A DNA stretch of 64,000 nt from Paraspadella gotoi (taxonomy: Eukaryota; Animalia; Chaetognatha): the NCBI GenBank assembly GCA_051294375.1, contig CM119270.1, forward strand, positions 9,929,086 to 9,993,085, written 5' to 3'. The number at the start of each line of letters is the position of its first letter. Positions within the stretch are counted from its first letter, which is position 1. Under the pieces are notes generated by a model. It had not been told where the DNA came from. It was given only the letters and a program-made list of their open reading frames with translations, and searched no databases. Both the position numbers and the translations under genes were made by a program. Positions 512-63,131 of this stretch are shown in pieces.

Positions 512-719
512 TGTGGATGCAACAAGTTTCAGATTAAGAATGATTTATTCTTCAACAAGGTTAATAACAATAACAGTCAAAAAGCTCAGATGCTAAGTCA
601 TAATAGGTATTTACAAGGTCAAAGTTGACCATAAAGCAAATGAGGGAAAACGATTGAGGGTAAGGTTGGTAAGGACAGTTTTGACCGAGGTTGCATGTTG
701 TTGTTGTTGTTGCTCCACA
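512..719 (-). mobile_element. 3' LTR of a Ty3/Gypsy retrotransposon (element on minus strand)
   Basis: TGTGGA...TCCACA termini. Directly abutted at 720-728 by CATCCCCCC (minus-strand polypurine tract GGGGGGATG). The same ~210-bp sequence recurs as a solo LTR with TSD at 25957-26166. Confidence 0.9.
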
Positions 720-2150
720 CATCCCCCCACATCACACGTCGAGTCGGCGAGAGGGTCTTTGTTCGCCTGGAAAGCGGCGTTTTGTGCCGCCACCCATTTT
801 AGCGCGCGCGGTTTTCCGCGAAGGACTTCGAGTAGAGGATCGAGATGATGAGCGGCGGAGGTGGCGTCGTGAGCATGGTCAAGAAGGATGCGGCGTTGAT
901 GATCGATGCCGAGATGGTGTTCCATCAAGAAGTCAGTGCCGAGAATGGGTGTGGAGATGTCGGCGATGATTACAAGAAAATTCATTCCCCAAGTCTAATC
1001 CCCATTTCTCGAATGCCAAGTTTAAACGGGCGTGTCGTTTGCGGCACGGAGTAGCGGGGCGTTGGCGGTGGCACGATCGGCGACAGAGGTGGAGATGAGT
1101 GTCGCCTTGGAGCCGCCATCGACGAGCCACTCCCGGCCAGCGTCGGGGTCGCGCACAAGAAAAAGTTTAGAATTGTTTTGGCCGGCGACGCGGACGACTA
1201 GCGGCCGCCAGCGTTGGCATTTGATGGCGCCATTGGGCATGGGCGGCCGTCACGGTTTGTGCCGTGGCATTTATGGGCGTTGGTGCCAAAGTGATAGTGA
1301 TAGAAGCACTTGGGTTCACCGGGAGGAGGTTCGCGCAGTGGTGGAGAGCGAAGCGTCAGAATTGGGCGGCGTTGTTGCTGCGGACGCTGATGCTGCGGAC
1401 GCTGCTGCGAGAATGGCCGCTGCGTTGAGCATGGTGGCGGTCGGCGTACTGCCTTCGCGTAAGAGATGGCGGCGTCATCGGCGTCGTTTGATGATTCATT
1501 TGGAATCTCCAGTGGCTCGTCCACTGTGACCTCGATGGAGGTGACGGCTTCACGAAGGTTGAGGCGCGATCAGAGCTATGGAGTTGGCCAGTAGGGAGGA
1601 AGAACTCGTCGGCGTCTTTGGCGATGTCGACGGGGTTCTTGTCTTTCCTGACGGCGTGTTCCCTGATGCTCTGTAGAAGGGCTGCAGCCAAGATCGCGGC
1701 TTTTATATGTTCGATCGTAAGGCCCTCGAGGATGGCGTCGATAGCAGAAAGGTGTTGTGAGGGAGTGACTCCCTCAGTGAAGTCATTTTCAGGGCTTTTG
1801 CGGCGCGCCGGTTGGCGTCTTCACTGTATACGCTCTTGAGGTGGGCGACATGGTTGATGTAGGCGTCGGGGCCTTCATCCGTGCACACTGCACAGTGCCT
1901 AAGGGATCAGGCGGTGACGAGCGATAGGAATGACGCAGAGGATGTGTGCCTTCTTTTCCGCTGGTTCGGTGATGCCAGTGGCGCCAAATTCCACGGCAGT
2001 GTGATCCAACCATTCTTCTATGTGGTTGGGGTCGAAGGTTGTTATCTTAGGGTTTCGCCTTCTCGCAGGGGCGTCGGAGGGAGGACGGGGGCAAACGGCG
2101 TTGCCAGCGTGGGCTATTGTTTTCGTTTTAAGGCAATTCCGTTGACGCAT
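720..2150 (-). pseudogene. Frameshifted, internally deleted Gypsy gag-protease(-pol remnant)
   Basis: Minus-strand fragments in order: gag N-terminus NPKITTFDPNHIEEWLDHTAVEFGATGITEPAEKKAHIL (KLPPFW/DUF7041-type); gag C-terminus CFYHYHFGTNAHKC; retropepsin LFLVRDPDAGREWLVDGGS...AAND...IADISTPILGTDFL; then a short RT-RNaseH connection piece (LDPLLEVLRGKPRALKWVAAQNAAFQANKDPLAD) fused straight to the PPT. RT core, RNase H and integrase are absent; no 5' LTR seen. Confidence 0.85.
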
Positions 2151-2661
2151 TGCTTGCGTCTGCTGATGGAGGATTTGGTCTTTCCGTGGCTGAGGCGAGT
2201 CTCACGTTTATATCATAAATCATTTAGAAAAGTTTTTCAATTTTATTTTCAAGAGATGCTGCGGATTTCGAGGCGGCGGCATCGTGAAAGGCATCGTCAC
2301 GGTCGTTGTCATAATTTATATAAAAATATATCATCGCAGGAGTATCAAGCCACCAAAATCGAATCGGATCGGAGGCTTGGGCGAAATGGAATCGCCGAAT
2401 CCTGATTGGTCAAGCACGAACGGAATCGACCAATCAGCTTGCAGAATCATTGAATTGTAAATTTTACCCACGTTGCCGATCCTCTTCCCAAGATATAAAT
2501 AGACTTAGCTTGTTCTAGTTTCAGTAGAATTGATCAAGACTCCTGCGCGCGTCTCACCGTCACCTTTATTCTCAGAATAAAACTTCTTCTTCTTCTATAT
2601 AAAATAGAATATATATATAGCTAATAATATTTTGTGCCGCTCTTATTTTTAAAAAGTAATA

Positions 2662-3103
2662 TATGGTGGAGTAAAATCTACCAATTCATCAGCGGCCATT
2701 GGTGCCGGAGGCAAGTCATTCGCCTCCCAACCCAAAGGTCCGGGGATCTAGCCTGGTGATCGCCTAGCAGTTAAGAGGGACTTCCGAACACATCATCAAC
2801 AACAACACTTTCAGGCAACATGCCTCAACCTGTTGATGCACTTTCCACCAACAACAATTCACAGAAGAGAAGCAAAAGTCTTCTCCCTATGGGAGTGGGG
2901 ATGTATGGTGGACTAAAATCTACCAACCGTTTATCAGCGGCCATTGGTGCCCGAGGCAAGTCATTCGCCTCCTAACCCAAAGGTCCGGGGTTCTAGTCCG
3001 GTGGTCGTCTAGAGGGATGGGGCGCTTAATCCGCCTGTAACAGGGTGTTACCGCCTGATCCGAAGCTCAGGGATTGCTTATATTGAACGGTTCTGTCACT
3101 AAC
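2662..3103 (+). mobile_element. TRIM-like family A, deleted copy (partial LTR 2662-2780, internal region, LTR 2904-3103)
   Basis: Direct repeat starting TATGGTGGA at 2662 and 2904. PPT GGGAGTGGGGATG precedes the second. Homologous to the complete copy at 51561-53185. Confidence 0.8.
2692..2764 (+). other. tRNA-like (Gly-like) cassette inside TRIM-A LTR; also at 2937-3009 (+), 52685-52757 (-), partial at 53098-53152 and ~58573-58626 (-)
   Basis: GCGGCCA...TGGTCGC acceptor-like stem; A-box-like TGGTGCCG(A/G)AGG; TTCGC-CTCCCAA (Gly CCC anticodon-loop-like); CCGGG-GTTCTAG-CCCGG T-arm/B-box-like. The anticodon stem does not pair, so this is not a functional tRNA gene. Confidence 0.65.
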
Positions 3104-3129
3104 ATTTATTTTTTAAATTTTTATTCTAG

Positions 3130-3278
3130 GGACCGAAGGCAAGCCGTCCCTGTCTCAATTGTCAAAAATGATTTACACGAACGCGTTTATGGACGAAGTA
3201 CAACGAATCTCATGTGTTGCCGATTCCGTCATTCCGCATAGATCCCTCAGTGACGCCACGATCTTCAACGGCTACACG
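3130..3278 (+). CDS. Cytochrome P450 (clan 2-like), internal exon with K-helix ExxR
   Basis: ttctag|G acceptor, (G)TEGKPSLSQLSKMIYTNAFMDEVQRISCVADSVIPHRSLSDATIFNGYT, |gtgaaa donor in phase 0. Confidence 0.9.
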
Positions 3279-3720
3279 GTGAAAAACAATGAACCGACGT
3301 ATTTATGTGTTTTTTATCGCGAATACGGTATTTTAATCGTCAGAATTAGTTGTCATTTAAAACTGTGCGACAGGGAAGCTTCACAAAGATTAAACCAGGG
3401 ACGTCCAGAAATGGCAGTCGAGAAATGGCATTATTTTAGTAGCTCCTTGAGTACTCACAGAGCAATTTGGTCGGTCGGTTGGTCTGTCCGGCTCTCCGTC
3501 GATCTGTCAAGTCATTATGAATAATAATTGGCATGAGATCCTTTAATTAACTGTAATGTAGAAGATGAAAAATAGTAATAATAAAAGTGAGGAGAGGTGA
3601 AGAATTGTGAAGAATTATGACGATGTAAGAGAAGTAGAAAAGAAGTGAGTCTAGCTCTCTCCTGATCCACTTTTATCATCGCCCGGACCAACTTGACCTT
3701 ACGGTCGCCTCGGCGCTATT

Positions 3721-3844: not shown

Positions 3845-3919
3845 AATAACAACATGATCGCCTTGAGATGCTATCACAAAAAAAAAGTTAATTCGCCCAA
3901 ACCCCATTTTTGTCTTCAG

Positions 3920-4077
3920 ATCACGAAAGAGGAAAGCGTCTGGGCGAACATTTGGGCAGCGCATCACGATCCCAACTTGTGGGACGAACCGGAGGAGTTT
4001 AGACCCGAACGATTCATTGACGGCGAAGGAAGATATTCGAAAAATCCCAACCTCATCACATTTTCCGTCGGCGCGAG
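3920..4077 (+). CDS. Cytochrome P450, exon with PERF motif and start of heme-binding loop
   Basis: ttcag| ITKEESVWANIWAAHHDPNLWDEPEEFRPERFIDGEGRYSKNPNLITFSVGA(R) |gtag; phase 0 in, phase 2 out. Confidence 0.93.
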
Positions 4078-4429
4078 GTAGAAATTTCTTTTTTTTTACT
4101 TTTAATACTCTGTAGTAACGAATCATACATAACATTAATCCCAAAACTAACTCTCCCCTGCACTTCTCCCTAATTCAATCTAATTAGAACTAGAACACTA
4201 GGGCAGAAAGTATTTTTAACCGTGGGGTTCACTCGATTTCCAGAAGACAACACTAACTTCTCTCTCCCCAACATAATAAAATGTGTTAAGTAACTCTGTT
4301 AATTATGTTTAAATAATTAAAATAATATAGAATATAAATAAGTTTTTTAAAATTAAGTGTCAAAAAGTATAACAAGTAATCTTTCAAGTTTTATATATGA
4401 GGAATATAACGAATTCTCATCAATTTTAG

Positions 4430-4607
4430 GCGCTGCATCGGAGAAAAACTGGCGACAATGGAACAATTTCTTTTCACTGTTCGTCTCGTGCAGAGATTGG
4501 ATTTTCGTTGCACGACAGACTTGCCCGACACCTATGGAGAACTCACCCTCGCCCGTCATCCAGGATTTTATCAAGTCAAAGCTTCGACCAGACAATTTCA
4601 TTCTTAA
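4430..4607 (+). CDS. Cytochrome P450, terminal coding exon with heme-ligand Cys
   Basis: ttttag|G completes Arg; RCIGEKLATMEQFLFTVRLVQRLDFRC...QFHS*. The spliced motif FSVGARRCIG matches FxxGxRxCxG. Upstream exons lie outside the window. Confidence 0.92.
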
Positions 4608-16284: not shown

Positions 16285-16473
16285 CTGGATGGAGGAAAGG
16301 GAGAGGAAAGGGAGGAAAGGGAAGAGGAAAATATAGGGAAAAGATTGGACAAAGGAAGAAAGGAGAGACGAAAAAGGGAGAAAGAAAGGGAGAAAAAAAG
16401 AAAAAGGAGAAATTTATAAAGGAGAAGAAAAAAGGAAAAACGAAGGAGAAAAAAACGAGTTGAAAATGAAGTC

Positions 16474-17160
16474 AACAAGTTTGAGCAAACAATGTCGGAT
16501 CTGCCTACGATAATTAAGTGGTAATAAGCTAACTTGGTTAACTTGCATAATTTAATCAACTTGCATTATTTGGTCAACTAGCATAATTTGGTCAACTGAC
16601 ATAATTTTGTCAGCTGGCATAATTTGGTCAACTGACATAATTTGGTCAACTGACAAAATTTGGTCAACTGACAAAATTTGGTCAACTTACAAAATTTGGT
16701 CAACTGACAAAATTTGGTCAACTGACAAAATTTGGTCAACTGACATAATTTGGTCAACTGACATAATTTGGTCAACTGACTTAATTTGTTTAACTGACTT
16801 AATTTATTTAACTGATTTAATTTGTTTAACTGACATAATTTGGTTAACTGTCATAATTTGTTCAACTGACATAATTTGGTAAACTGACATAATTTGGTTA
16901 TATCCATCTCAATCACAGTTTCCTACCTACACACAAAATTTCATACCAATCCATCCATCCAATCACGAGTAATTGGAGTTTTTTGCTAAGGGTGGACGGA
17001 CGAAAGGACGGATGGATGGACATTTTTTTGCATAATTTATCATAGTTCGAGGTTCTGTTATGATAATAATTATTTACCGACAATATTTTGGGGTGGGACC
17101 GACGGACCGACAAAGTGAATTATAGAGTCGGAATCTGCTGATTAGCAAATCTGACTAAAA
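16474..17160 (-). mobile_element. DINE-1/HINE-like (Helentron-associated) element with 18-bp internal tandem array
   Basis: AACAAGTTTGAGCAAACAATGTCGGATCTGCC end; aatttggtcaactgacat array; GGAC microsatellite; GTCGGAATCTGCTGATTAGCAAATCTGACTAAAA end (subterminal inverted repeat plus palindrome); T-rich flanks, no TSD. Confidence 0.8.
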
Positions 17161-25559: not shown

Positions 25560-26184
25560 ATGACCAGGAAGCAAACACGCAGGGTTATTATAGGTTCCGG
25601 GTTCAATCCTTCATTCTCAATTTTTTTATCGCTCCTGGTTTCGGGTTCTTCAAAAATCGGCCGCTTCCACACTCCACAGTGTTCGCTTACGCTTTCCGGA
25701 TCGCGTCCACATCTCTGGTTTAAAACTTCAATACTGATGCTACTATTTTTTTTTAAAAATGAACAAAACATTTTTAGCCTTTTTTGGCCTCCCAGGGGTC
25801 CAACCCCAGGGCCATGTATCTCTGGTCAGGGGTTGAATATCAAAATTCGCCTCGATAGTTCCATTTATATTGTCATTAGCACTCTAAATGTAAAATTTCA
25901 TGAAATTCGATTGGGTAGTTTGGTGGGAACAGATTCTGGTAACAAAAAAGGGGTACTGTGGACGACACAAGTTTCAGAGTAAGAATGATTTATTCTTCAA
26001 CAAGGTTAAAAACGATATCAATAAAAGGCTCAGATGCTAAGTCAAAAACAATAGATATTTACAAGGTCAAAGTTTGACCATAAAGAGAAATGAGGGAAAA
26101 CGGTCGAGGGTAAGGTTGGCAAGTTCGGTTTTGACCAAGGTTGCGTGTTGTAGTTGTTCGTCCACAGTACCTCATTTTATAATA
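25560..26184 (+). repeat. Interspersed host repeat, possibly Helitron/Helentron-like; partial inverse copy at 20595-20960
   Basis: Shares gaactatcgaggcgaattt, ccagaa.ctgttcc and tattataaaatgaggtac with 20595-20960; interrupted by a solo LTR. Confidence 0.65.
25957..26166 (-). mobile_element. Solo LTR of the Gypsy element at 512-2150
   Basis: TGTGGACGA...TCGTCCACA 9-bp terminal inverted repeat; 4-bp TSD GTAC (25953-56 and 26167-70). Confidence 0.93.
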
Positions 26185-26768: not shown

Positions 26769-27171
26769 CTAAGTAGATAATGTGTTAAAATATTTGTGAG
26801 AAAAATAAACTATTAATTAAATAACAAGAACGGTAATTCCAATGTGATGCGCCGCAGTGACTTTATTTTCACATGTATTTCCCTTTGATGACATATGACA
26901 TGACATGACTAAAAAACAGAAACAAAAAATCTTAAAGGAATAGTGATCTCACCAGACGAGAGGAGGAAATAAAGAAATAAAAAAAGAAAGACAAAAAATT
27001 GATGCGATGATAACCAATAATCAATAATTGATGCGATGATAACCAAATGATTGATGCGATGATAATCATTCATTGACGCGATGAATCATTCATCGTAAAT
27101 AAAACAATATGAGTGAGAGAGAGAGAGAGAAAGAGAGAGAGATATATAGAAGGAGAGAGAGAAAGAAAGAG

Positions 27172-27579
27172 AAAACAAGTTTGTGCAAACAATGTCGGAT
27201 CTGCCTACGATAATTAAGTGGTAATAAGCTAACGTGGTCAACTTGCATAATTTAATCAACTTGCATAATTTGGTCAACTGACATAATTTGGTTAACTGAC
27301 TAAATTTGGTCTACTGACATAATTTGGTCAACTGACATAATTTGGTCAACTGACATAATTTGATCAATTAAGATAATTTGGTCAACCGGCATAATTTGGT
27401 CAACTGGCATAATTTTATCAACTGGCCTAATTTGGTCAACTTGCATAATTTGGTCAACAGGCATAATTTGGTGAACTTGCAGAACTTGATCAACTTGCAG
27501 AATTTGGTCAACTGGCATAATTTGGTCAACTTTAAGAATTTGGTCAACTGGCATATTTTTGTCAATTGGCATAATTTGG

Positions 27580-27610
<31 letters not shown>

Positions 27611-28329
27611 GAGAGAGATAGAGAGAGAGAAACTTTAAAAAATACAAAAAAATGTGTCTTTTGGTTTTCTAATTTGAACTCTTTTCCACTCCTACGATTC
27701 CATCAAAAAATTTATATCCAGCTTTATCACATACTTTCCTACCCACACACAAAATTCAATTTCGATTTATCTATCCAATTTTTAATAAACATAATAATTA
27801 TGTGTAAATTTAAGTAAAAATACTTCAAGTAAATATGACTTTTGTTTTTTCCATTTTAACTCATTTCCACTCGCACGATTCCATCGAAACTTTAAATCCA
27901 GCTTAATCACACACTTTCCTACCATCATACAAAATTGCAAGTCAGTTGCCATATCCACTCATGAGCAATAGTGAAATATATTTTTTTGTTTTTTCCATTT
28001 AAACCAATTTCCACTCGCACGATTCCCTCGAAACTTCATATCCATCTCAATCACACAGTTTCCTACCCACACACAAAATTTCATACCAATCCATCCATCC
28101 AATCACGAGTAATTAGAGTTTTTTGCTAAGGTGGTATGGACGGACAGACAGACAGACAGACAGGCAGACAGACAGATGGACGGACATCATTTTTTTTGCA
28201 TAATTTATCATAATTAAATGTTCTGACATGATATAAGTGTGTGCCCGACAATATTGAGGGGGCGGACCGACGGACCGACAAAGTGAATTATAGAGTCGGG
28301 ATCTGCTGATAAGCAGATCCGACTAAAAA
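27172..28329 (-). mobile_element. DINE-1/HINE-like element, 18-bp-repeat subfamily
   Basis: Both termini, 18-bp array, ~90-bp repeats and GACA microsatellite present. Confidence 0.85.
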
Positions 28330-34261: not shown

Positions 34262-35496
34262 TTTTTAGTCGGATCTGCTTATCAGCAGATTCCGACCCTA
34301 TAAATCACTTTGTCGGTCCGTCGGTCCCACCCCAAAATATTGTCGGTAAATCATTATTATCATATCAGAACGTCGAATTATGATAAATTATGCAAAAAAA
34401 TTCCATCCGTCCGTCCGTCCAATTACTCGTGATTGGATGGATGGATTGGTATGAAATTTTGTGTGTGGGTAGGAAACTGTGTGATTGAGATGGATATGAA
34501 GTTTCGATGGAATCGTCCGAGTGGAAATTGGTTTAAATGGAAAAAACAAAAAAATCTATTTCACTATTTGAACGCCAATTGCTCATGAGTGGATAGGGCA
34601 AGTGACTTGATATTTGTATGATGGTAGGAAAGTGAGTAATTGAGCTGGATATAAAGTTTCGATGGAATCGTGCGAGTAGAAATGAGTTAAAATGGAAAAA
34701 AACAAAAATCATATTTACTTGAAACATTTTTACTTAAATTTACTCATAATTATTATGTTTATTAAAAATAGTGAAACAAGTAATTTGCAAATTTTCATAG
34801 ACAAATTGAAAATGAATTTTGTTTGTGGGTAGGAAAGTATGTGATAAAGCTGGATATAAATTTCTTGATGGAATCGTAGGAGTGGAAAAGAGGTCAAACC
34901 AAAAGACACATTTATTTGAATTTTTTAAAGTTTCTCTCTCTCTATCTCTCTCTGATTGATTGATTGATTGATTGACCAAATTATGCCAATTGAAAAAAAT
35001 ATGCCAGTTGATCAAATTCTGCAAGTTGACCAAATTATGCCAGTTGACCAAATTATGCCAGTTGACCAAATTCTGCAAGTTGACCAAATTATGCCAGTTG
35101 ACCAAATTATGCCAGTTGATAAAATTATGCCAGTTGATAAAATTATGCCAGTTGACCAAATTATGCCGGTTGACCAAATTATGTTAATTGACCAAATTAT
35201 GTCAGTTGACCAAATTATGCCAGTTGACCAAATTTTGTCAGTTGAACAAATTATGTCAGTTAACCAAATTATATCAGTTAACCAAATTATGTCAGTTGAC
35301 CAAATTATATCAGTTAACCAAATTATGTCAGTTGACCAAATTATGCAAGTTGATTAAATTATGCAATTTGACCAAGTTAATTATCATAATTATAATCATC
35401 ATTATTATAATCATCATTATTATCATAATTATTATCATCATCAATTATCATAATTATCATAGGCAGATCCGATATTGTTTGCTCAAACCTGTTTTT
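34262..35496 (+). mobile_element. DINE-1/HINE-like element, 18-bp-repeat subfamily
   Basis: TTTTTAGTCGGATCTGCTTATCAGCAGATTCCGAC...(GTCC)n...~90-bp repeats...18-bp array...GGCAGATCCGATATTGTTTGCTCAAACCTGTTTT. Confidence 0.85.
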
Positions 35497-50443: not shown

Positions 50444-51560
50444 TTTTTATTGTTTTTGAGCTGAAGAAAATGATGATGAATCGAGAAAAAATGTAGTTGA
50501 ACAGAAGAAACCAGTTTTTGATTTTCGCTGTCTTTAAAACGAAATTGCGTCAGGTGACCGGGTTTTGTGTTTTGACTTCGTTAGGGGGTGTCAAGAGAAT
50601 TTTGACCCAGGTCATGGTTATGAAGCTTGGAGATGATGAGATGGTGAGATGGAAAATATAAGGTTTTAGTTTAGGTTATAAAACTACTAAACGATAAAAA
50701 TAATCTACTTAGACTTCTGAACATAGAACTGATTCTTCCTAAATCAGACACAAATTTACTAAATTTGCTGAATATTTCGATTAACGAATCTTCTTTGTGA
50801 TAAAACGGAGATAGATGCAAAACCTCACGATCTTCGTCGATCAAATGTCACTCCCTTCCTTTCAGGGGGCGTCATGGAATTTCGTCGTCGCCCACATTTT
50901 TTTGTCCTTCATTCGGAGGCGGAATAAGTTTGATATTGAAAAGACAATGAGATAAAAGTCGCGAAACACTTTTCTTCTTTTTTATAATCGGGAAGTTTTG
51001 AATTTCCGGGAAGTGAGAAATAAGAAATCCGCTCCATCTGTTATCTTTATTAACAATTTATTAAAAACGGAATCAGTTTCATCGGCTAATCGGTTTATCA
51101 ATTTTTATTCGGGGGAGGAGGTTGGGGGGGCAGGTGGAGGGTGTTTGGGGGGGTAGGCGGAGATTGGGGGGGTGGTAGGAAGGGGTTGGGGCGGCTGGGG
51201 GTGGAGGTTGTGGCGGTGGGAGGAGGTAGGAGGGAGGTAAAGAAGAATGTTGAGCGTCTCGTGTTTCTCATTAAAATTTTTCTTCGTTCTGGTTCCAAGG
51301 AAAAAAAACTTTGTAAGCAACAGATTAAGTTTCCCCTTTTATTTTTGTTTTTTAAAAAAATGGTCTTATGACGACAACGACGACGACGACGACGACTTCG
51401 ACAAGGATGGCATCGTAGAATGAAGAGAGCAGTATCCATCAGAAGATAACTTAATTTATGTAAGTTTTTAGTTTTTTATGTTCGGATTTAGGATTAGGTG
51501 AGGGTTAGTGGTTACTAACTGGTGAGGGTTGGGGATTGATTTATAGGTTCGGCTACAGAC

Positions 51561-53185
51561 TGAAGAGACAGTAATTATTGTTATGTGACAGAACCGTTCA
51601 ATATAAGAAGTCACTGAGCTTCGGATCAGGCTGTAACACCGAGCTACAGGCGGGTTAAGGTCCGGGATCACTAAATTCAAATTATAATTAGGCTAAAACC
51701 GACCTCGGATTTCGAAAGGATAGCTCCTGACGATTCCGAAAATGTATTCACTTTACTATTTTTTCAAAGGCGTCATCGTTTTTTCGATTTTTTTGGTACT
51801 ATATAAAATAAAAGAAACCTATTTGAAGAGTTGCAGCCCAAACGGTAAGGCGGTTTCTCATGAAATTTGACATGAATTACCTTTAGGTCACGAACTCCAA
51901 TTCTATGAAAAGATACTTTCAAAATTTGCCTTCCTTCATAGAAAATTTGATTATTTTAGTCAATTTTTGGGATTAATTCCTTGATATTTTTGAAACAAAA
52001 AACATTTTTCCAAAAACGCGCTCATAGAATCTCCCCCACCTTTCTTTTCTTGCCCAAGATATTTTTTTCTTCAAGAAGAGTCCAGCGGTTTGAGCTGCAA
52101 CTTCGTCAAGAAAATTAAATTCTGTACTCATTATTTTTGCAAGATTCACCACAACATACACAAGCACGGGATGTGATGATGGAGTTCGTTCAACGCCGAT
52201 GTCTTAAAAAAATGGCTTACTGTTTTTAATTTTATTAATTCAGATTTGATTTTTTTTCAGAGATGATATAAACATTTACATAAAGTAAAAAGTCAAATGG
52301 AAATAAATTTGATAAGTTTTTTAACTCATAAAATTCATAAAAGCATTTAAGACTTATTAGTGATACAACTCCAAGTATGTACTTGTACCAAAAGAAGAAT
52401 TAAAAATAAGAAGTAGAAATTGAGCTTACTGTAAAGAATAAGTTTTAAGTTAAAAATTTGGTAGTAGAAATTTAGTTTATATTTAAAAAATCTTTTTCTC
52501 TTGAAAATTTAGTTTTACCGAAGAAAAAATTTTGTTTAAAATTTTATGAACATTTTAGGTAGATTTTTAAAAGTTTTTGATTATTTTCTAATAGAAAACC
52601 TCTTATAAGATGTGAGAAAATGATTAAGATACAGTAAATAAATATTTCTACAATTTTAGGTTGAGTGATCCCTCTTAACTGCTAGGCAACTACCGGGCTA
52701 GAACCCCGGACCTTTGAGTTGGGAGGCGAATGACTTGCCTTCGGCACCAATAGCCGCTGATGAATGGTTTAGTCCACCATACATCCCCCCCTCCCGTAGG
52801 GAGAAGTCTGTTGCATCTCTTCAGTGAATTGTTGTTGTTGGTAAAAAGTTCATCACCAAGTTGAGGCATGTCGCCTGATGTGTTGTTGGCGGAAAGTGCA
52901 TCGACAGGTTGAGGCATGTCGCCTGAAAGCGTCGTTGTTGCTCTTGTATTCGGAAGTCGAGCTCACCAATGAAGAGACAGTAATTATTGTTATGTGTTAA
53001 TGACAGAACTGTTCAATATAAACGGTCCCTGAGCTTCGGAACAGGCTGTAACACCGAGTTACAGGCGGGTTAAGCGCCCCGTTCCTCTTAACTGCTAGGC
53101 GACCACCAGGCTAGAACCCCGGACCTTTGGGTTAGGAGGCGAATGACTTGCCTGATGAATAGTTGGTGGATTTTAGTCCACCATA
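51561..53185 (-). mobile_element. Complete TRIM-like family A element with 4-bp TSD
   Basis: 5' LTR 53185-52970 (TATGG...TCTTCA); PBS-like T-TGGTGAGCTCGAC; 188-bp non-coding interior; PPT GGGAGGGGGGGATG; 3' LTR split into 52781-52671 and 51659-51561; AGAC at both flanks (51557-60 and 53186-89). Confidence 0.9.
51660..52672. mobile_element. ~1 kb AT-rich insertion splitting the TRIM-A 3' LTR, possibly Kolobok-like
   Basis: TTAA next to both junctions; short inverted repeat GGGATCACT / AGTGATCCC near the ends. Confidence 0.5.
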
Positions 53186-56100
53186 AGACTTTGTTTAAAT
53201 ATTAATGTTAAAATACAGGATAAAGGAACAGAAATGGAGAAGAGAGCAAAAATTCTATATCTTTGTCTCACTGCCGTTTTCTACCAAAATCTGCATTGGC
53301 ATGAGGGGCTATAGAAGATCATCCGTGTAAATATTAAAATTCAAGTTCGATTTATAAAAAAAAATTAATTAATTAATTATTTAAATAAATAAATAAATAA
53401 ATAAAGAAAAATTAATTAATTAATTAATTAAATAATTAAATAAACATTTTCAAAAAAATGAATGAAATGAATGAATGAATGAATGAATGAATGAATGAAT
53501 ATAGGAATGAGTCAATTTTGGAATGAATGAATTAAGGGATTTAGACGATATTGTTATGAATATTGAAGACGAGGACGACGACAACGACGACGATGACGAT
53601 ATTGACACCGACGATCGTGCCGCCTTTTTCTCTCATCTCTCTCGGGGAACATCTGGAAAAAAAGGAAAGCAAACGGAAAACGTAAACAAAGAATTTTTTT
53701 GGTTTTGGATGCGATTTCCAGATAATCCCGTCACCGGAAGTGACGTTTCATGCAAATTTAAACCAAACACGATGAGAAGCAAAACTAGACGGGGGATGAA
53801 ATAAAAAAAACATCAACAACATCAACGACGAAGATAACGACAAAAAAAAAACAAGAACAACAGTGTTGTTCAACGACGACGACGATAACCCAGCCAGATG
53901 AAATCGTAAACCTCGAAGACCACATGTATGCGTTTTGAGGAGATTCAAATCGCGAAACAAAAATAAGATTCAAGAGTTTTTTTTTGAAGTTTTGGGTTTG
54001 TTTTTTTTTTTTTTTTTTTTTTTAAACTTTTTTCTTATTTTAGTTTGTATTTTTGGAGGGGGAGGCCAGACCAGAGGAGGAGGGCTTTTTTTTTCTCTCT
54101 CTCTTCCTCTGCGGGCTTCGTAATTCATATCGACCACCGCCCTGTTTTCTCTTAACTTTTACGTTTTTTTTCTTTGTTTCTTCTTTTCTCTCCTTCGCCT
54201 CAGATATTGAGAATTTTTTTAATTCTGCACATTTTTTTTTCTTTTCTGTTTAATTCAAATCGTTTGACGCGGAGAAAAAAAGAGAAGCAGGGAATTGGAA
54301 AGGAAGATAGAAAAGAAAAAACCAAGGGAATCTAATAGTGGTAGAAACAATGAAATAGGAAGTTAAAGTCTCCGTGTAGGAAAAAGCACAATAGTAGAGT
54401 AGAAAGAGCTAAAAACTAGAAAATTAGCAGTTTAAAAATATTTGTAATCTTGGTAGTCTTTCTAACAAATTGCCCCAGTTCCTCAGCCCCGAACGCGAAG
54501 AAACCGGGAACGGATCCCACATTTTTGGCCCAGCTGTTGTCTTGAAACGCACGAAAGGTTTAAGAAAAAAACTTCACAAACTTTTAACGATCTTCGGACT
54601 TCTAAAAAAAATATAATCCAAATCATATTGAAAATCCCAAACTTCTTTTTTCAATTTAATTTCGGGGAAGAATGAGCAGAATTTCGAATCTAAAAAGATA
54701 ATCAAGAAAGGCAAGCGCGATCAATCGTTTCGACAACGAGAGCGGTTCAATTTTCGGATGGGAAAGCAATTGTCAGTTTTTAGTCGGATCTGCTTATAAG
54801 CAGATCCCGACACTATAATTCACTTTGTCGATAAGGTCGGTCCGCCCCCTCAATCTTGTCGGGCATTAACTTATTTCATGTCAGAACATAAGTTATGCAA
54901 AAAAAAAACGATGTCCGCCCGCCCGTCCGTCNNNNNNNNNNCAATTGACCTGAAATTTTGTATGTGGGTAGGAACATATTTGATTAAGCTGGAAATCAAG
55001 TTTCGATGGATCTTTTGAGTGGAAATGAGTTTAAATGGAAAAAAACAAAAAACCTGTTTCACAAATTGATTATGCTTCTTTTTCTTTTTATATTAAATGT
55101 AAATGCAACTCAATAGGGTGAGTCAAAAATTTAGAGTGAATACATGCTCAAACGAATATTTAGACATTTTTAAGAATACTTTCAATGAACAAAAATTTAT
55201 AATATGGCCCTATACTCTAGTAATTAATTTTTTAATATTTATTTATAAACAGGAAAGGCCAAAAATTTTTTTAGAATTTTTAAATTTTAAGACCAGATTC
55301 AGATAGCTCATACAAAGTATAATTCTTTTTTAAATATTTTTACGATAAGTGTGTCAAAAATAAGAAAAACGTAAAAAATTATCATCTTTCGATGAATTTA
55401 TCAGTTTTTTTATATTTTCACTTAGAAAACGTAAGAATTTTTAAAAGCTGTAATTATATTTCTTGTTTAACTTTTTATGCTATATCAGAATGCAAAAAAT
55501 TTTAAGATTTTAAAAAAATATTTTTTGCTCTATATAGTAATATAATATTTTTTAATTAGGCTAGTACCCTCAGAAGAAAGCATTTTTGACAAAAAATATT
55601 TTAATACCATAATCTATGGTCATGATAGATTATTTTAACGCTGTATACATTAGCATTTAAATTTCATTGGCTATTGCTAATGCAAGATGTATAAATTAAT
55701 CAAAATAATTAATCAGTTAATTAATTTATTAGTCAATTAATTAATCAATTTTTAATTAATCAGTCAATTAATCAATCAAAACAAACATTTCGGATCAAGT
55801 TAATTATTTAATAAACTAATTAATTAATTAACTTGAATTAATTCATTATTAATTATTTAATTACCGATATTGATCGTGGGCAGATCCGACATTGTTTGCT
55901 CAAACTTGTAACGTTAAAGAACGCGTAATGATATTAATAATTATTGGCAGATTTAAACATTTACCTTACAAAAAACCTTTAAAATGAATAATAGAAATAT
56001 TTTTTAAAAATATTTTACCGTCTTAAACCTGAAATTTTTTTCAAGTGTGTGCAGTGCACTGTGCAGTCAATATTTCTAAAAAAGTAAAGGAAACATAGAT

Positions 56101-58405: not shown

Positions 58406-58445
<40 letters not shown>

Positions 58446-61400
58446 GAAGAGACAGTAATTATTGTTATGTTTAATGACAGAACTGTTCAATATAACGGTC
58501 CCTGAGCTTCGGAAACAGGCCTGTAACACCGGATTACAGGCGGGTTAAGCGCCCCGTTCCTCTTAACTGCTAGGGCGACCACCAGGCTAGAACCCCGGCC
58601 TTGGGTTAGGAGGCGAATGACTTGCCTGATGAATAGTTGGTGGATTTTTGTCCACCATAAGACTTTTGTTTAAATATAATGTTAAAATACAGGATAAAGG
58701 AACAGAAATGGAGAAGAGAGATCTATTTGTCTCACTGCCGTTTTCTACCAAAATCTGCATTGGCATGAGGGCTATAGAAGATCATCCGTTGTAAATATTA
58801 AAATTCAAGTTCGATTTAAAAAAAAAATTAATTAATTAATTATTTAAATAAATAAATAAATAAATAAAGAAAAAAATTAATTAATTAATTAATTAAATTA
58901 ATTAATATAAACATTTCAAAAAATGAATGAATGAATGAATGAATGAATGAATGAATGAATGAATGAATGAATGAATGAATGAATATAGGAATGAGTCAAT
59001 TTTGGAATGAATGAATTAAGGGATTTAGACGATATTGTTATGAATATTGAAGACGAGGACGACGACAACGACGACGATGACGATATTGACACCGACGATC
59101 GTGCCGCCTTTTTCTCTCATCTCTCTCGGGGAACATCTGGAAAAAAAGGAAAGCAAACGGAAAACGTAAACAAAGAATTTTTTTGGTTTTGGATGCGATT
59201 TCCAGATAATCCCGTCACCGGAAGTGACGTTTCATGCAAATTTAAACCAAACACGATGAGAAGCAAAACTAGACGGGGGATGAAATAAAAAAAACATACA
59301 ACAACATCAACGACGAAGATAACGACAAAAAAAAAAACAAGAACAACAGTGTTGTTCAACGACGACGACGATAACCCAGCCAGATGAAATCGTAAACCTC
59401 GAAGACCACATGTATGCGTTTTGAGGAGATTCAAATCGCGAAACAAAATAAAGATTCAAGAGTTTTTTGATTTTGGTTGTTTTGTTTTTTTTTTTTTTTT
59501 TTTAAACTTTTTTCTTATTTTAGTTTGTATTTTTGGAGGGGGAGGCCAGACCAGAGGAGGAGGGCTTTTTTTTTCTCTCTCTCTTCTCTGCGGGCTTCGT
59601 AATTCATATCGACACCGCCCTGTTTTCTCTTAACTTTTACGTTTTTTTTCTTTGTTTCTTCTTTTCTCTCCTTCGCCTCAGATATTGAGAATTTTTTAAT
59701 TCTGCACATTTTTTTTTCTTTTCTGTTTAATTCAAATCGTTTGACGCGGAGAAAAAAAGAGAAGCAGGGAATTGGAAAGGAAGATAGAAAAGAAAAAACA
59801 AGGGAATCTAATAGTGTTAGAAACAATGAAATAGGAAGTTAAAGTCTCCGTGTAGGAAAAAGCACAATAGTAGAGTAGAAAGAGCTAAAAACTAGAAAAT
59901 TAGCAGTTTAAAAATATTTGTAATCTTGGTAGTCTTTCTAACAAATTGCCCCAGTTCCTCAGCCCGAACGCGAAGAAACCGGGAACGGATCCCACATTTT
60001 TGGCCCAGCTGTTGTCTTGAAACGCACGAAGGTTTAAGAAAAAAAACTTCACAACTTTTAACGATCTTCGGACTTCTAAAAAAAATATAATCCAAATCAT
60101 ATTGAAAATCCCAAACTTCTTTTTTCATTTTAATTTCGGGGAAGAATGAGCAGAATTTCGAATCTAAAAAGATAATCAGAAAGGCAAGCGCGATCAATCG
60201 TTTCGACAACGAGAGCGGTTCAATTTTCGGATGGGAAAGCAATTGTCAGTTTTTAGTCGGATCTGCTTATAAGCAGATCCCGACACTATAATTCACTTTG
60301 TCGATAAGGTCGGTCGCCCCCTCAATCTTGTCGGCATTAACTTATTTCATGTCAGAACATAAGTATGCAAAAAAAAAACGATGTCCGCCCGCCCGTCCGT
60401 CCGTCCGTCCGTCCGTCCGTCCGTCCGACCTTAACAAAAACACCGATTACTCGTGATTGGATGGATGGATTGGAATTTGTATGTGGTTAGGGAAGTGTGA
60501 GATTGAGCTGGATATGAAGTTTCGATGGAATCATCCGAGTGGAAATGAGTTTAAATGGAAAAAACAAAAAAATATATCTCATTATTATTTGAACACCAAT
60601 TACTCATGAAAGGATGGGGCAATTGACCTGAAATTTTGTATGTGGGTAGGAACATATTTGATTAAGCTGGAAATCAAGTTTCGATGGATCTTTTGAGTGG
60701 AAATGAGTTTTAAATGGAAAAAAACAAAAAACCTGTTTCACAAATTGATTATGCTCTTTTCTTTTTATATTAAATGTAAATGCAACTCATAGGGTGAGTC
60801 AAAAATTTAGAGTGAATACATGCTCAAACGAATATTTAGACATTTTTAAGAAACTTTCAATGAACAAAAATTTATAATATGGCCCTATACTCTAGTAATT
60901 AATTTTTTTAATATTTATTTATAAACAGGAAAGGCCAAAAATTTTTTTAGAATTTTAAATTTTAAGACCAGATTCAGATAGCTCATACAAAGTATAATTC
61001 TTTTTTAAATATTTTTACGATAAGTGTGTCAAAAATAAGAAAACGTAAAAAATTATCATCTTCGATGAATTTATCAGTTTTTTTATATTTTCACTTAGAA
61101 AACGTAAGAATTTTTAAAAGCTGTAATTATATTTCTTGTTTAACTTTTTATGCTATATCAGAATGCAAAAAATTTTAAGATTTTTAAAAAAATATTTTTT
61201 GCTCTATATAGTAATATAATATTTTTTAATTAGGCTAGTAGCCTCAGAAGAAAGCATTTTTGACAAAAAATTTTTAATACCATAATCTATGGTCATGATA
61301 GATTATTTTAACGCTGTATACATTAGCATTTAAATTTCATTGGCTATTGCTAATGCAAGATGTATAAATTAATCAAAATAATTAATCAGTTAATTAATTT

Positions 61401-63131
61401 ATTAGTCAATTAATTAATCAATTTTTAATTAATCAGTCAATTAATCAATCAAAAAAACATTTTCGGATCAAGTTAATTATTTAATAAACTAATAATTAAT
61501 TAACTTGAATTAATTCATTATTAATTATTTAATTACCGATATTGATCGTGGGCAGATCCGACATTGTTTGCTCAAACTTGTACGTTAAAGAACGCGTAAT
61601 GATATTAATAATTATTGGCAGATTTAAACATTTACCTTACAAAAAACTTTAAAATGAATAATAGAAATATTTTTTAAAAATATTTTACCGTCTTAAACCT
61701 GAAATTTTTTTCAAGTGTGTGCAGTGCACTGTGCAGTCAATATTTCTAAAAAAAGTAAAGGAAACATAGATAATTTAAAATAGAACCGAATGAGACGGAG
61801 TCGAAGTTGTATTTTTTTTTTTTGAGGCTTATTTTTTTGACGTCATCTGATGCTTCTTTCTGTTTTTCTGAGTCTCTTTTCTTTCGATCCGTCGGTTTTA
61901 TTTATTTTCCGCCTTCCAGTTTTTCAATATTCTTTTGTTTGATTTTAATTGTCGAATCCAATCTCTTTAGATTTTTTTATATCTTACCACGCACTTAGGC
62001 GTCTTCGGCATGCATTTTTAATCGTAGAAAGTATTTAACAGTCGAATGAATAGCTTTTATATCTAAAAAATAATACAAGTTCAACGTAATTAGTGATCGA
62101 TATGTAAACAAATCTGGCCGTGTAAACAGATATTTCAAAAATAGAATATTCTGCTTCATATTTGATTTCTCGGTCAAAATGTGCCGACTTAACTTCTCTG
62201 AGATGGTTTTGAAAAATAGGGAACGTCCACCTGGATCCCCTTACGATTTTCTCAAAACACGAAACAGGAAAAGAGAAAATCACCTCTAAAAATTGATCAC
62301 ATGAGAGCGAGAGGGAGAGTCATGAATCGTCTTGGGAAATTACCCATGCTCTCTTTTCACAAGAAACACGGAAATATAAGGAATGGAGAAAGAAATAGAG
62401 AAGAGAGAAAGAGAGCGAGAGAGAGAGAGAGATTTTCATTCCAATATTCTCTTGTCGTCCCTTTTCTTATAATTTTACTTTCTTCGACGTATTAAAGAAA
62501 AAAATAGATACGATCCCAAAATACAACAATTTTCAAATCAATCGGTTAGTTTACAAAAACAAAAAACAAAAAACATAATCAAAATAAAAATAAAGAAAAC
62601 ATAAGGTAGGTTAATTATCTTCTTCCCCAAAATATTCGTTCGTCCACAAAAATTCGAAATATTTTTTTATCGTTAAATTTCTCGGTCTGAGTTTTCCCCG
62701 AATATTTTTACGGGTTTTTCACGGAAGATGATGAAAGAAGCGACGAGGCCGAAGACAGGGGAGAAGGTTTGTTTATTGACATTCGAGCCAATCATATCAC
62801 TATTTTACGCTCATTCTCTTCCCCCTTTTTTTTCAAGTAATATTTTTTTATTATAAAGGAATGTTGACTAATTTACGTTTTATAGACAGCCATGAAAATC
62901 AATTTTTTAAAAATGAGATGAAGAGAGAGGAGTCAAGGAGAGAGAGGGTTTCATTAATTAATTAATTAATTTTTGGCCAACTTCATTAAAAAAAAATTTA
63001 AGTAAAATTCTTTACAGTGAATAGTTGATTAATCAAATCCCAGATCTTCATCGACGAAAAATTGAGAAAGGACGAAAAATTGTTTTTCTATCTTTGATGT
63101 AGAAGAAAAAAATCGTTTTGGTGAATTTGAG

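Follow-up and report, generated by a model that had tools for sequence, protein, structure and literature searches.

We describe a small retroelement in a 64-kb stretch of the Paraspadella gotoi genome (the window, to which all coordinates refer). Located at 51557-53189 and termed copy A, it is, judging from its sequence, a terminal-repeat retrotransposon in miniature, or TRIM, of the Helenus type with a retrozyme-like design. Its long terminal repeats (LTRs) carry a tRNA-derived cassette, an arrangement that is already known, and directly 3' of the cassette we predict a type-P5 twister-ribozyme fold, with two defects. The explanation that we consider best, with moderate confidence, is that the cassette would recruit RNA polymerase III (Pol III), that the twisters of the two LTRs would act as a pair to release a unit that is circularised, and that a Gypsy helper would copy it. 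Several sources were available to us in part (PMC2582038, PMC4918200, PMC6765202, PMC7229834, PMC7761336, PMC8501958, PMC13570524, and the supplementary files of PMC10886601), and statements that cite them refer to those parts.

Anatomy and abundance of the family

Copy A lies on the minus strand and consists of a 5' LTR, a primer-binding site (PBS), an interior, a polypurine tract (PPT), and a 3' LTR, flanked by a 4-bp target-site duplication (TSD), AGAC (51557..51560 and 53186..53189). The non-coding LTR-interior-LTR structure with a 4-bp TSD that a preliminary description had reported was thus seen again; the TSDs of other family copies were unreadable, and the 4-bp length comes from the insertion of copy A alone. 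By alignment, the 5' LTR (53185-52970) is 216 bp long and has the ends TA...CA, so that it starts with TA, not TG. As had also been reported, its A-box part is gone: 18 bp of the cassette are missing between 53152 and 53153. The PBS, TGGTGAGCTCGAC (52968-52956), is of the tRNA-Trp type, as it matches the PBS for Trp in Fig. S2 of PMC10886601. The interior (52969-52782) is 188 bp long and non-coding; the two open reading frames of at least 60 amino acids that overlap it had no Pfam match. The PPT (52795-52782) adjoins the 3' LTR.

The 3' LTR spans 52781-51561 but is interrupted at 51664-52672 by a non-coding insertion of 1009 bp. The insertion has 9-bp terminal inverted repeats, GGGATCACT, and resembles a miniature inverted-repeat transposable element (MITE); both ends are placed to within a few bases. 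The proximal part of the LTR (52781-52673) contains the start TATGG, a hairpin, the cassette, and the first strand of twister helix P5. The distal part (51663-51561) contains the UAA cleavage site (51657-51655), the P3 hairpin, the P4/L4 loop (51625-51618), and the end CA. Copy A had been called complete, and the two LTRs, PBS, interior, PPT, and TSD are indeed all present, but it is not complete because the insertion, which had gone unmentioned, interrupts the 3' LTR within the twister core. Without the insertion, copy A is about 620 bp long. In an alignment of its LTRs, 13 of 190 letters differ and there are gaps as well, so this is not a young copy. It is likely dead, because the 5' LTR lacks both the A-box part and the presumed catalytic G of the twister and the ribozyme core of the 3' LTR is split.

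We mapped Logan contigs from four sequencing runs onto 51450-53300, which placed 5842, 13439, 2278, and 910 contigs. Over the LTRs, the summed contig depth (which is no copy number) was 3-4 orders of magnitude above that of the flank, and at both LTR termini the contigs end loosely in many dissimilar AT-rich flanks (agreement 0.41-0.53). On this evidence, the family is highly repeated, and it appears to be protein-free. The 18 bp missing from the 5' LTR of copy A appear as loose ends at 53152 (62, 86, and 35 contigs in three runs). LTRs of the family thus normally have the full cassette, which is no isolated insertion of a short interspersed nuclear element (SINE). The bulk of the contigs carry the cassette, which speaks against the concern that most LTRs of the family might lack it. 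The family is uniform across the cassette, with listed variants mostly at 1-15% and highest at CpG sites. A metagenome scan with an 18-mer returned 17 loci, all of them chance matches and none extended. Contigs cover the MITE-like insertion, at a lower depth of its own, and contigs also bridge it (51629 joined to 52669, and 51659 joined to 52692). It has one copy within the window and, judging by the contigs, is itself repeated.

A second, shortened copy of the family (copy C) lies on the plus strand at 2662..3104, with half of the 5' LTR and the PBS deleted. It retains two intact cassettes (2692-2764 and 2937-3009) and a twister core (3012-3070) in which the G-A is present and the first P5 strand is absent. 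Copy C is directly upstream of a cytochrome P450 exon and is likely intronic. There is also a duplicate of the 5' LTR of copy A on the minus strand (58445..58659). We take this to be a segmental duplication or an assembly duplicate, not an independent insertion, because it shares the outer flank of copy A.

The tRNA-like cassette

The cassette is 73 nt long and degenerate. In the 3' LTR of copy A (52757-52685, minus strand), it has a weak A box (52749-52738) and a B box, GGTTCTAGCC (52705-52696). We built a generic tRNA covariance model from 22 phage tRNAs and ran it without filters on the window. The three intact cassettes were ranks 1, 2, and 3 of nine matches at E ≤ 10, with 22.3, 21.1, and 14.6 bits (E = 6e-4, 1e-3, and 0.08); the next site scored 8.5 bits. 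The top-ranking match is the cassette of copy A, whose anticodon loop is CCC (Gly-like) in the register of the model. Two of the copies have CCC in this loop and the third has CCT. A tRNA fit is seen for the acceptor and T arms; the D and anticodon stems are broken. The Rfam tRNA model (RF00005) gave 10.5 bits for the cassette of copy A (the gathering score is 29) and no match at E ≤ 10 for the other two intact cassettes, and ARAGORN found no tRNA genes. The tRNA likeness that had been described stands as far as the ranking and the good B box go, but the cassette fails as a tRNA gene. We consider it to be derived from a tRNA and too degenerate to be a tRNA gene. Weak matches to the sR38 snoRNA (10.7-14.9 bits, versus 50) were taken as chance, and a viral scan with a Gly-like tRNA pattern gave four loci and no tRNAs.

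The cassette probably serves as a Pol III promoter. The B box GGTTC is found in four of the five LTR copies that cover the site (one of them being the duplicate, at 58594) and is the majority reading in the contigs; where copy C has lost the B-box T, at 2746, ~99% of the contig depth has it. The A box is weak (TGGTG...AGG versus TRGCY/YGG). Conservation of the boxes is indistinguishable from the general uniformity of the family. On the sense strand, neither the folding energy of the cassette (z of -0.6 to -1.5) nor the lack of T4 terminator runs (P = 0.36-0.53 versus shuffles) was significant. A compensatory pair between copies had been reported in the acceptor stem, and this did not hold up. 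It is a single event private to one copy (at 52752, the contigs of run X1 show the other letter in ~99% of the depth), and the chance of a paired change among 5-7 private changes is 8-16%, so it is within chance. In addition, right after the B box of copy C, at 2753, 15-16 contigs in two runs and five in a third depart into dissimilar tails; these may be other families or SINEs that share a tRNA-like head.

A twister-like fold downstream of the cassette

Going 3' from the cassette, the LTR has a P5 strand, GAGG, G-A, a T1 strand, a 6-nt P1 region, and UAA, followed by a 3-nt P2 strand, GC, the P3 hairpin, P4 with an 8-nt loop (L4), and the P5 partner. In the 5' LTR, this twister-like fold occupies 53096-53021 on the minus strand. 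Its parts are the P5 strand (53096-53091), the P2 strand (53087-53084), the P1 6-mer (53078-53073), UAA (53072-53070), P3, L4 (53040-53033), and the P5 partner (53026-53021), and the position of the presumed catalytic G, 53083, is an A. We drew a descriptor of the type-P5 twister from the consensus line of the Rfam model and Table 1 of PMC8501958. Across both strands of the window (128 kb), it matched only the cores of two LTRs: one strictly and one, the 5' LTR of copy A, if the G was relaxed. Among 20,000 shuffles there was one strict match and there were five with the G relaxed. The descriptor recovered 21 of 24 control loci. (Our first control patterns had given six loci, of which only one, L022, passed the descriptor; L022 scores 65.6 bits under the Rfam twister model, and another, L023, scores 17.9 bits, below the cut-off.)

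Several details agree with a twister. The core contains UAA, GC, the 8-nt L4, and G-A, and both P4 with its loop and complementary segments for the pseudoknots T1 and T2 (a predicted pairing) are present. The cleavage site NAA and the catalytic G-A are found in the 3' LTR of copy C and in the contig majority, which has the G at 53083; the majority letter at 53041 was likewise read. With the contig-majority letters at 53022 and 53024, 53021-53026 becomes the exact complement of 53091-53096, which gives a P5 of 6 bp. T1 can still pair, both of its sides having been swapped (CCG with CGG or UGG, versus CCC with GGG). L4 is one letter off the Schistosoma loop reported in PMC8501958, and the P3 strand at 51648-51640 is letter-identical to the Schistosoma P3 strand given there.

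P1 has an unusual form. The 6-mer GGCGCU is self-complementary (-8.3 kcal/mol as a self-duplex) and has no intramolecular fold. Because this 6-mer, too short for a hairpin, is the only P1 available, we suggest that the two LTRs would cleave as a pair. Self-complementary 6-mers account for 14 of the 407 in the LTR, and the chance level is about 3-4%.

Other observations weigh against this fold, and with it against our overall explanation. No LTR copy matched the Rfam twister models at E ≤ 10, and a P5 model that we built ourselves picked up nothing beyond the P4/L4 part (12.3 and 9.5 bits; E = 0.5 and 2.1); under our own twister model, the segment at 51625-51618 was rank 2 of 5, which is not significant. 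P2 has a 5' strand of 3 nt and no more than two direct pairs, against four in Rfam and in Table 1 of PMC8501958. Two control loci with a 3-nt P2 strand (L029:27-93 and L039:27-93, both P5-type candidates on one viral contig) do parse, but these also parse with four, and the controls mostly have four. There is no P1 helix within a single copy, as two copies are needed for the pairing. Because we loosened the descriptor once the LTR had been inspected, the shuffle numbers are optimistic. In the minimum-energy fold of both natural copies, the G-A strand and L4 are buried in another helix, and forcing P2 and P4 costs ~12.7 kcal/mol before pseudoknots. The changes at 53083 and 53041 damage the twister core and also perfect this alternative helix that hides it. 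The data analysed contained no covariation from other families. As for the cassette, its A box departs from the consensus, and no higher conservation is visible at the box positions than next to them. Finally, no intact helper was identified.

Two other ribozyme readings were rejected. The LTR has no match to Rfam hammerhead models, and the antisense strand, although it carries CTGATGA behind a hairpin, has neither stem II nor the GAAA half of a hammerhead core. By eye, an HDV-like reading lacks an upstream P2 partner.

A candidate helper, the proposed cycle, and alternatives

The PBS matches the Trp PBS of Fig. S2 of PMC10886601 at 11 of 13 letters, and at 12 of 13 with the contig-majority letter at 52960; the sequence printed there may not be that of the host's own tRNA-Trp. 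Priming by the tRNA mimic itself, which the preliminary description had raised, is not supported, since the PBS matches the 3' end of tRNA-Trp and the 3' end of the cassette has no complement to it; we rejected self-priming by the cassette. A Trp PBS together with a 4-bp TSD is characteristic of the CsRn1 clade (PMC2582038). The window contains a broken, CsRn1-like Gypsy remnant (~512-2350, minus strand) whose gag-like and protease-like pieces have stops and frameshifts. Among them are a gag-like CX2HX9C motif and a piece with relatives in which a protease domain of retroviral type is present. Most of pol is apparently absent, there is a PPT and a 200-bp 3' LTR (709-512), and no 5' LTR or PBS was found. 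The PPT-LTR junction GGGGGGATG-T(G/A)TGG is common to the remnant and the TRIM. Because of the Trp PBS, the 4-bp TSD, and the presence of this remnant with the same junction, we suggest a helper of the CsRn1 clade. The family of the remnant has also left a solo LTR at 25957-26158, which is 86% identical to 512-708 and is flanked by a 4-bp TSD, GTAC.

We infer the steps of the cycle that follows; what was observed is how the element is built, how abundant it is, its likeness to a tRNA, and the core motifs of the twister. Pol III would start near the cassette of the 5' LTR. The GGCGCU 6-mers of the 5' and 3' LTRs would swap strands and share one 6-bp P1, so that cleavage would occur only once the whole unit has been made. 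Cleavage at the UAA of both LTRs would then excise the unit (406 nt lie between the two UAA sites of copy A without the insertion, or about 420 with the full cassette), and a host ligase would join its 5'-OH and cyclic-phosphate ends, as in hammerhead retrozymes. Host tRNA-Trp would prime at the PBS, and the reverse transcriptase and integrase of a CsRn1-like Gypsy would copy the circle past one unit and insert the product with a 4-bp TSD. The circle step is taken from hammerhead retrozymes (PMC4918200, PMC7761336, PMC7229834), and the cleavage of a dimer through a stunted palindromic stem is taken from the Penelope hammerheads (PMC6765202).

The main alternative is that copy A belongs to an ordinary Helenus family, in which the cassette drives Pol III, strand transfer is normal, and what resembles a twister was captured, for example from the 5' end of an RTE-type element or from a SINE, and is now an inactive relic. 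The element has every structural feature of Helenus, and a relic would account for the defects in P2 and P1, the absence of an Rfam score, and the favoured alternative fold; furthermore, RTE elements, at whose 5' ends twisters have been described (PMC8501958; PMC7761336), are a possible source. However, a relic would not need to keep the core motifs along with the T1 pair, though swapped, and a P5 that is perfect in the majority letters, and we think that this alternative is rather unlikely, although it is the strongest competitor. Less probable still is that the twister acts as a monomer, with a P1 of one G-U pair, and trims the 5' and 3' ends independently without any pairing between LTRs. 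P1 is dispensable for cleavage by twisters, though they are inefficient without it (PMC8501958; PMC6154101), and a self-complementary 6-mer may arise at the chance level given above. Against this, no intramolecular stem can form from the 6-mer and the alternative helix prevails in the monomer fold, so we give this alternative little weight.

The cassette could also be a passenger, such as an old SINE head, with transcription by Pol II or by read-through. The weak A box and the lack of visible selection on the boxes would fit, and retrozymes have been described as promoterless and reliant on read-through (PMC7761336). However, the cassette and its B box are retained in the bulk of the contigs, and the tRNA-in-LTR arrangement recurs in many lineages (PMC10886601), which makes a passenger very improbable. 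We therefore continue to favour paired twisters, a circularised unit, and copying by a Gypsy helper, as a model.

Relation to known elements and implications

The tRNA-resembling sequence within the LTR had been proposed as a possible animal analogue of known plant elements, but the class is already catalogued, with animal families included, as Helenus or TRIMp3 (Kojima 2024; PMC10886601). Helenus elements are TRIMs with a tRNA-like sequence in the LTR and are found in fungi, six animal phyla, and one plant; those of animals have 4-bp TSDs and Gypsy-type PBSs. That paper saw no priming from the cassette, and it offers no experimental proof that Pol III is used. Our element shares the Helenus features: it is a non-coding TRIM of less than 1000 bp (~620 bp here) with two LTRs, a PBS, a PPT, a tRNA-like sequence in each LTR, the B box GGTTC, and a 4-bp TSD; in both, the PBS is complementary to the 3' end of a tRNA and not to the cassette, and a Gypsy helper is proposed. 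Unlike most Helenus families, it lacks the box A motifs TRGCY and YGG. It also differs in that its cassette is near the start of the LTR and is followed by a twister-like fold and that its LTR starts with TA, not TG. By eye, the anticodon-arm and T-arm letters of fish Helenus sequences in the supplementary data resemble those of our element, and their A box is degenerate too. The word "twister" does not occur in the text of the Helenus paper, and an exact-motif search (without alignment) of its consensus file, Data S1, found no match to motifs specific to our family. In the same file, we noticed by eye that the gall-wasp families Helenus-2_SyJa-LTR and Helenus-2_SyUm-LTR have a hammerhead-like core 3' of the tRNA-like part. 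This core comprises CTGATGA, a stem, GAAAC, and an upstream GTC triplet with a stem; these families have a Trp PBS, and the core goes unmentioned in the paper.

The LTR retrozymes of plants (PMC4918200; PMC7761336) are likewise non-autonomous LTR elements with a ribozyme in each LTR, a PBS, a PPT, a 4-bp TSD, and end boxes like those of Gypsy, and for them a model of unit-length excision and circularisation has been proposed. However, their ribozyme is a type III hammerhead, for which our LTRs gave no Rfam match, their PBS matches tRNA-Met, their units are 600-1000 nt, and no tRNA-type promoter is described in these sources. Their circles and cleavage have been demonstrated, whereas those of our element are predicted. 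Type-P5 twisters (RF02684; PMC8501958) share the order P2-GA-T1-P1-UAA-P2-GC-P4-L4 and a retroelement setting with our fold, which differs in its 6-nt self-complementary P1 stub, its 3-nt P2 5' strand, and its swapped T1. The Perere-3 twisters of Schistosoma, whose L4 and P3 letters are close to ours, are of type P1 and lie at the 5' end of a non-LTR element (PMC8501958). In metazoan non-LTR retrozymes, the minimal hammerheads of Penelope elements, and SINE-like repeats of Schistosoma (PMC7229834; PMC6765202), cleavage depends on a dimer through a stunted palindromic stem, the promoter precedes the ribozyme, and small circles occur in animals, but these are hammerheads in elements with no LTR, PBS, or PPT. 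Finally, Cassandra TRIMs also have a Pol III promoter derived from a small RNA inside the LTR; theirs is derived from 5S, they are found in plants, their transcription by Pol III is validated, and no ribozyme has been described in them (PMC10886601).

Some other features of the window touch on these copies or lie apart from them. Copy C is upstream of the first of three cytochrome P450 exons (Pfam p450; 3126-3281, 3917-4078, and 4428-4580). Near-identical blocks ~5.5 kb apart (53189-53765 with 58660-59249, and 55388-55910 with 61061-61582), with small indels beside short N gaps, point to segmental or assembly duplication. Dispersed arrays of an 18-bp tandem repeat occur in both orientations (16400-16950, 27100-27640, and 34910-35450).

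A literature search by title and the start of the abstract, in which subscription journals were mostly uncovered, returned no animal LTR element with a twister, and a twister-bearing LTR is absent from the available part of a 2026 survey of TRIMs (PMC13570524). We tentatively propose, at somewhat less than even confidence, that the family is an LTR retrozyme of an animal, in which a tRNA-type Pol III promoter is combined with an obligate-dimer twister, the two LTRs sharing one palindromic P1. If this is true, then RtcB-type ligation would receive two nearby ends and produce an RNA circle of ~420 nt, to be copied by a CsRn1-like Gypsy. An active twister would add animals to the plants as hosts of LTR retrozymes and the twister to the hammerhead as their ribozyme, and it would be, as far as the literature covered shows, the first strand-swapped twister dimer from nature. 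It would also account for the way in which the RNA ends are set in a Pol III-driven LTR element that has no terminator in its LTR. Together with the hammerhead-like core of the gall-wasp Helenus-2 families, it would make a Pol III promoter plus an interchangeable ribozyme a wider, unrecognised design.

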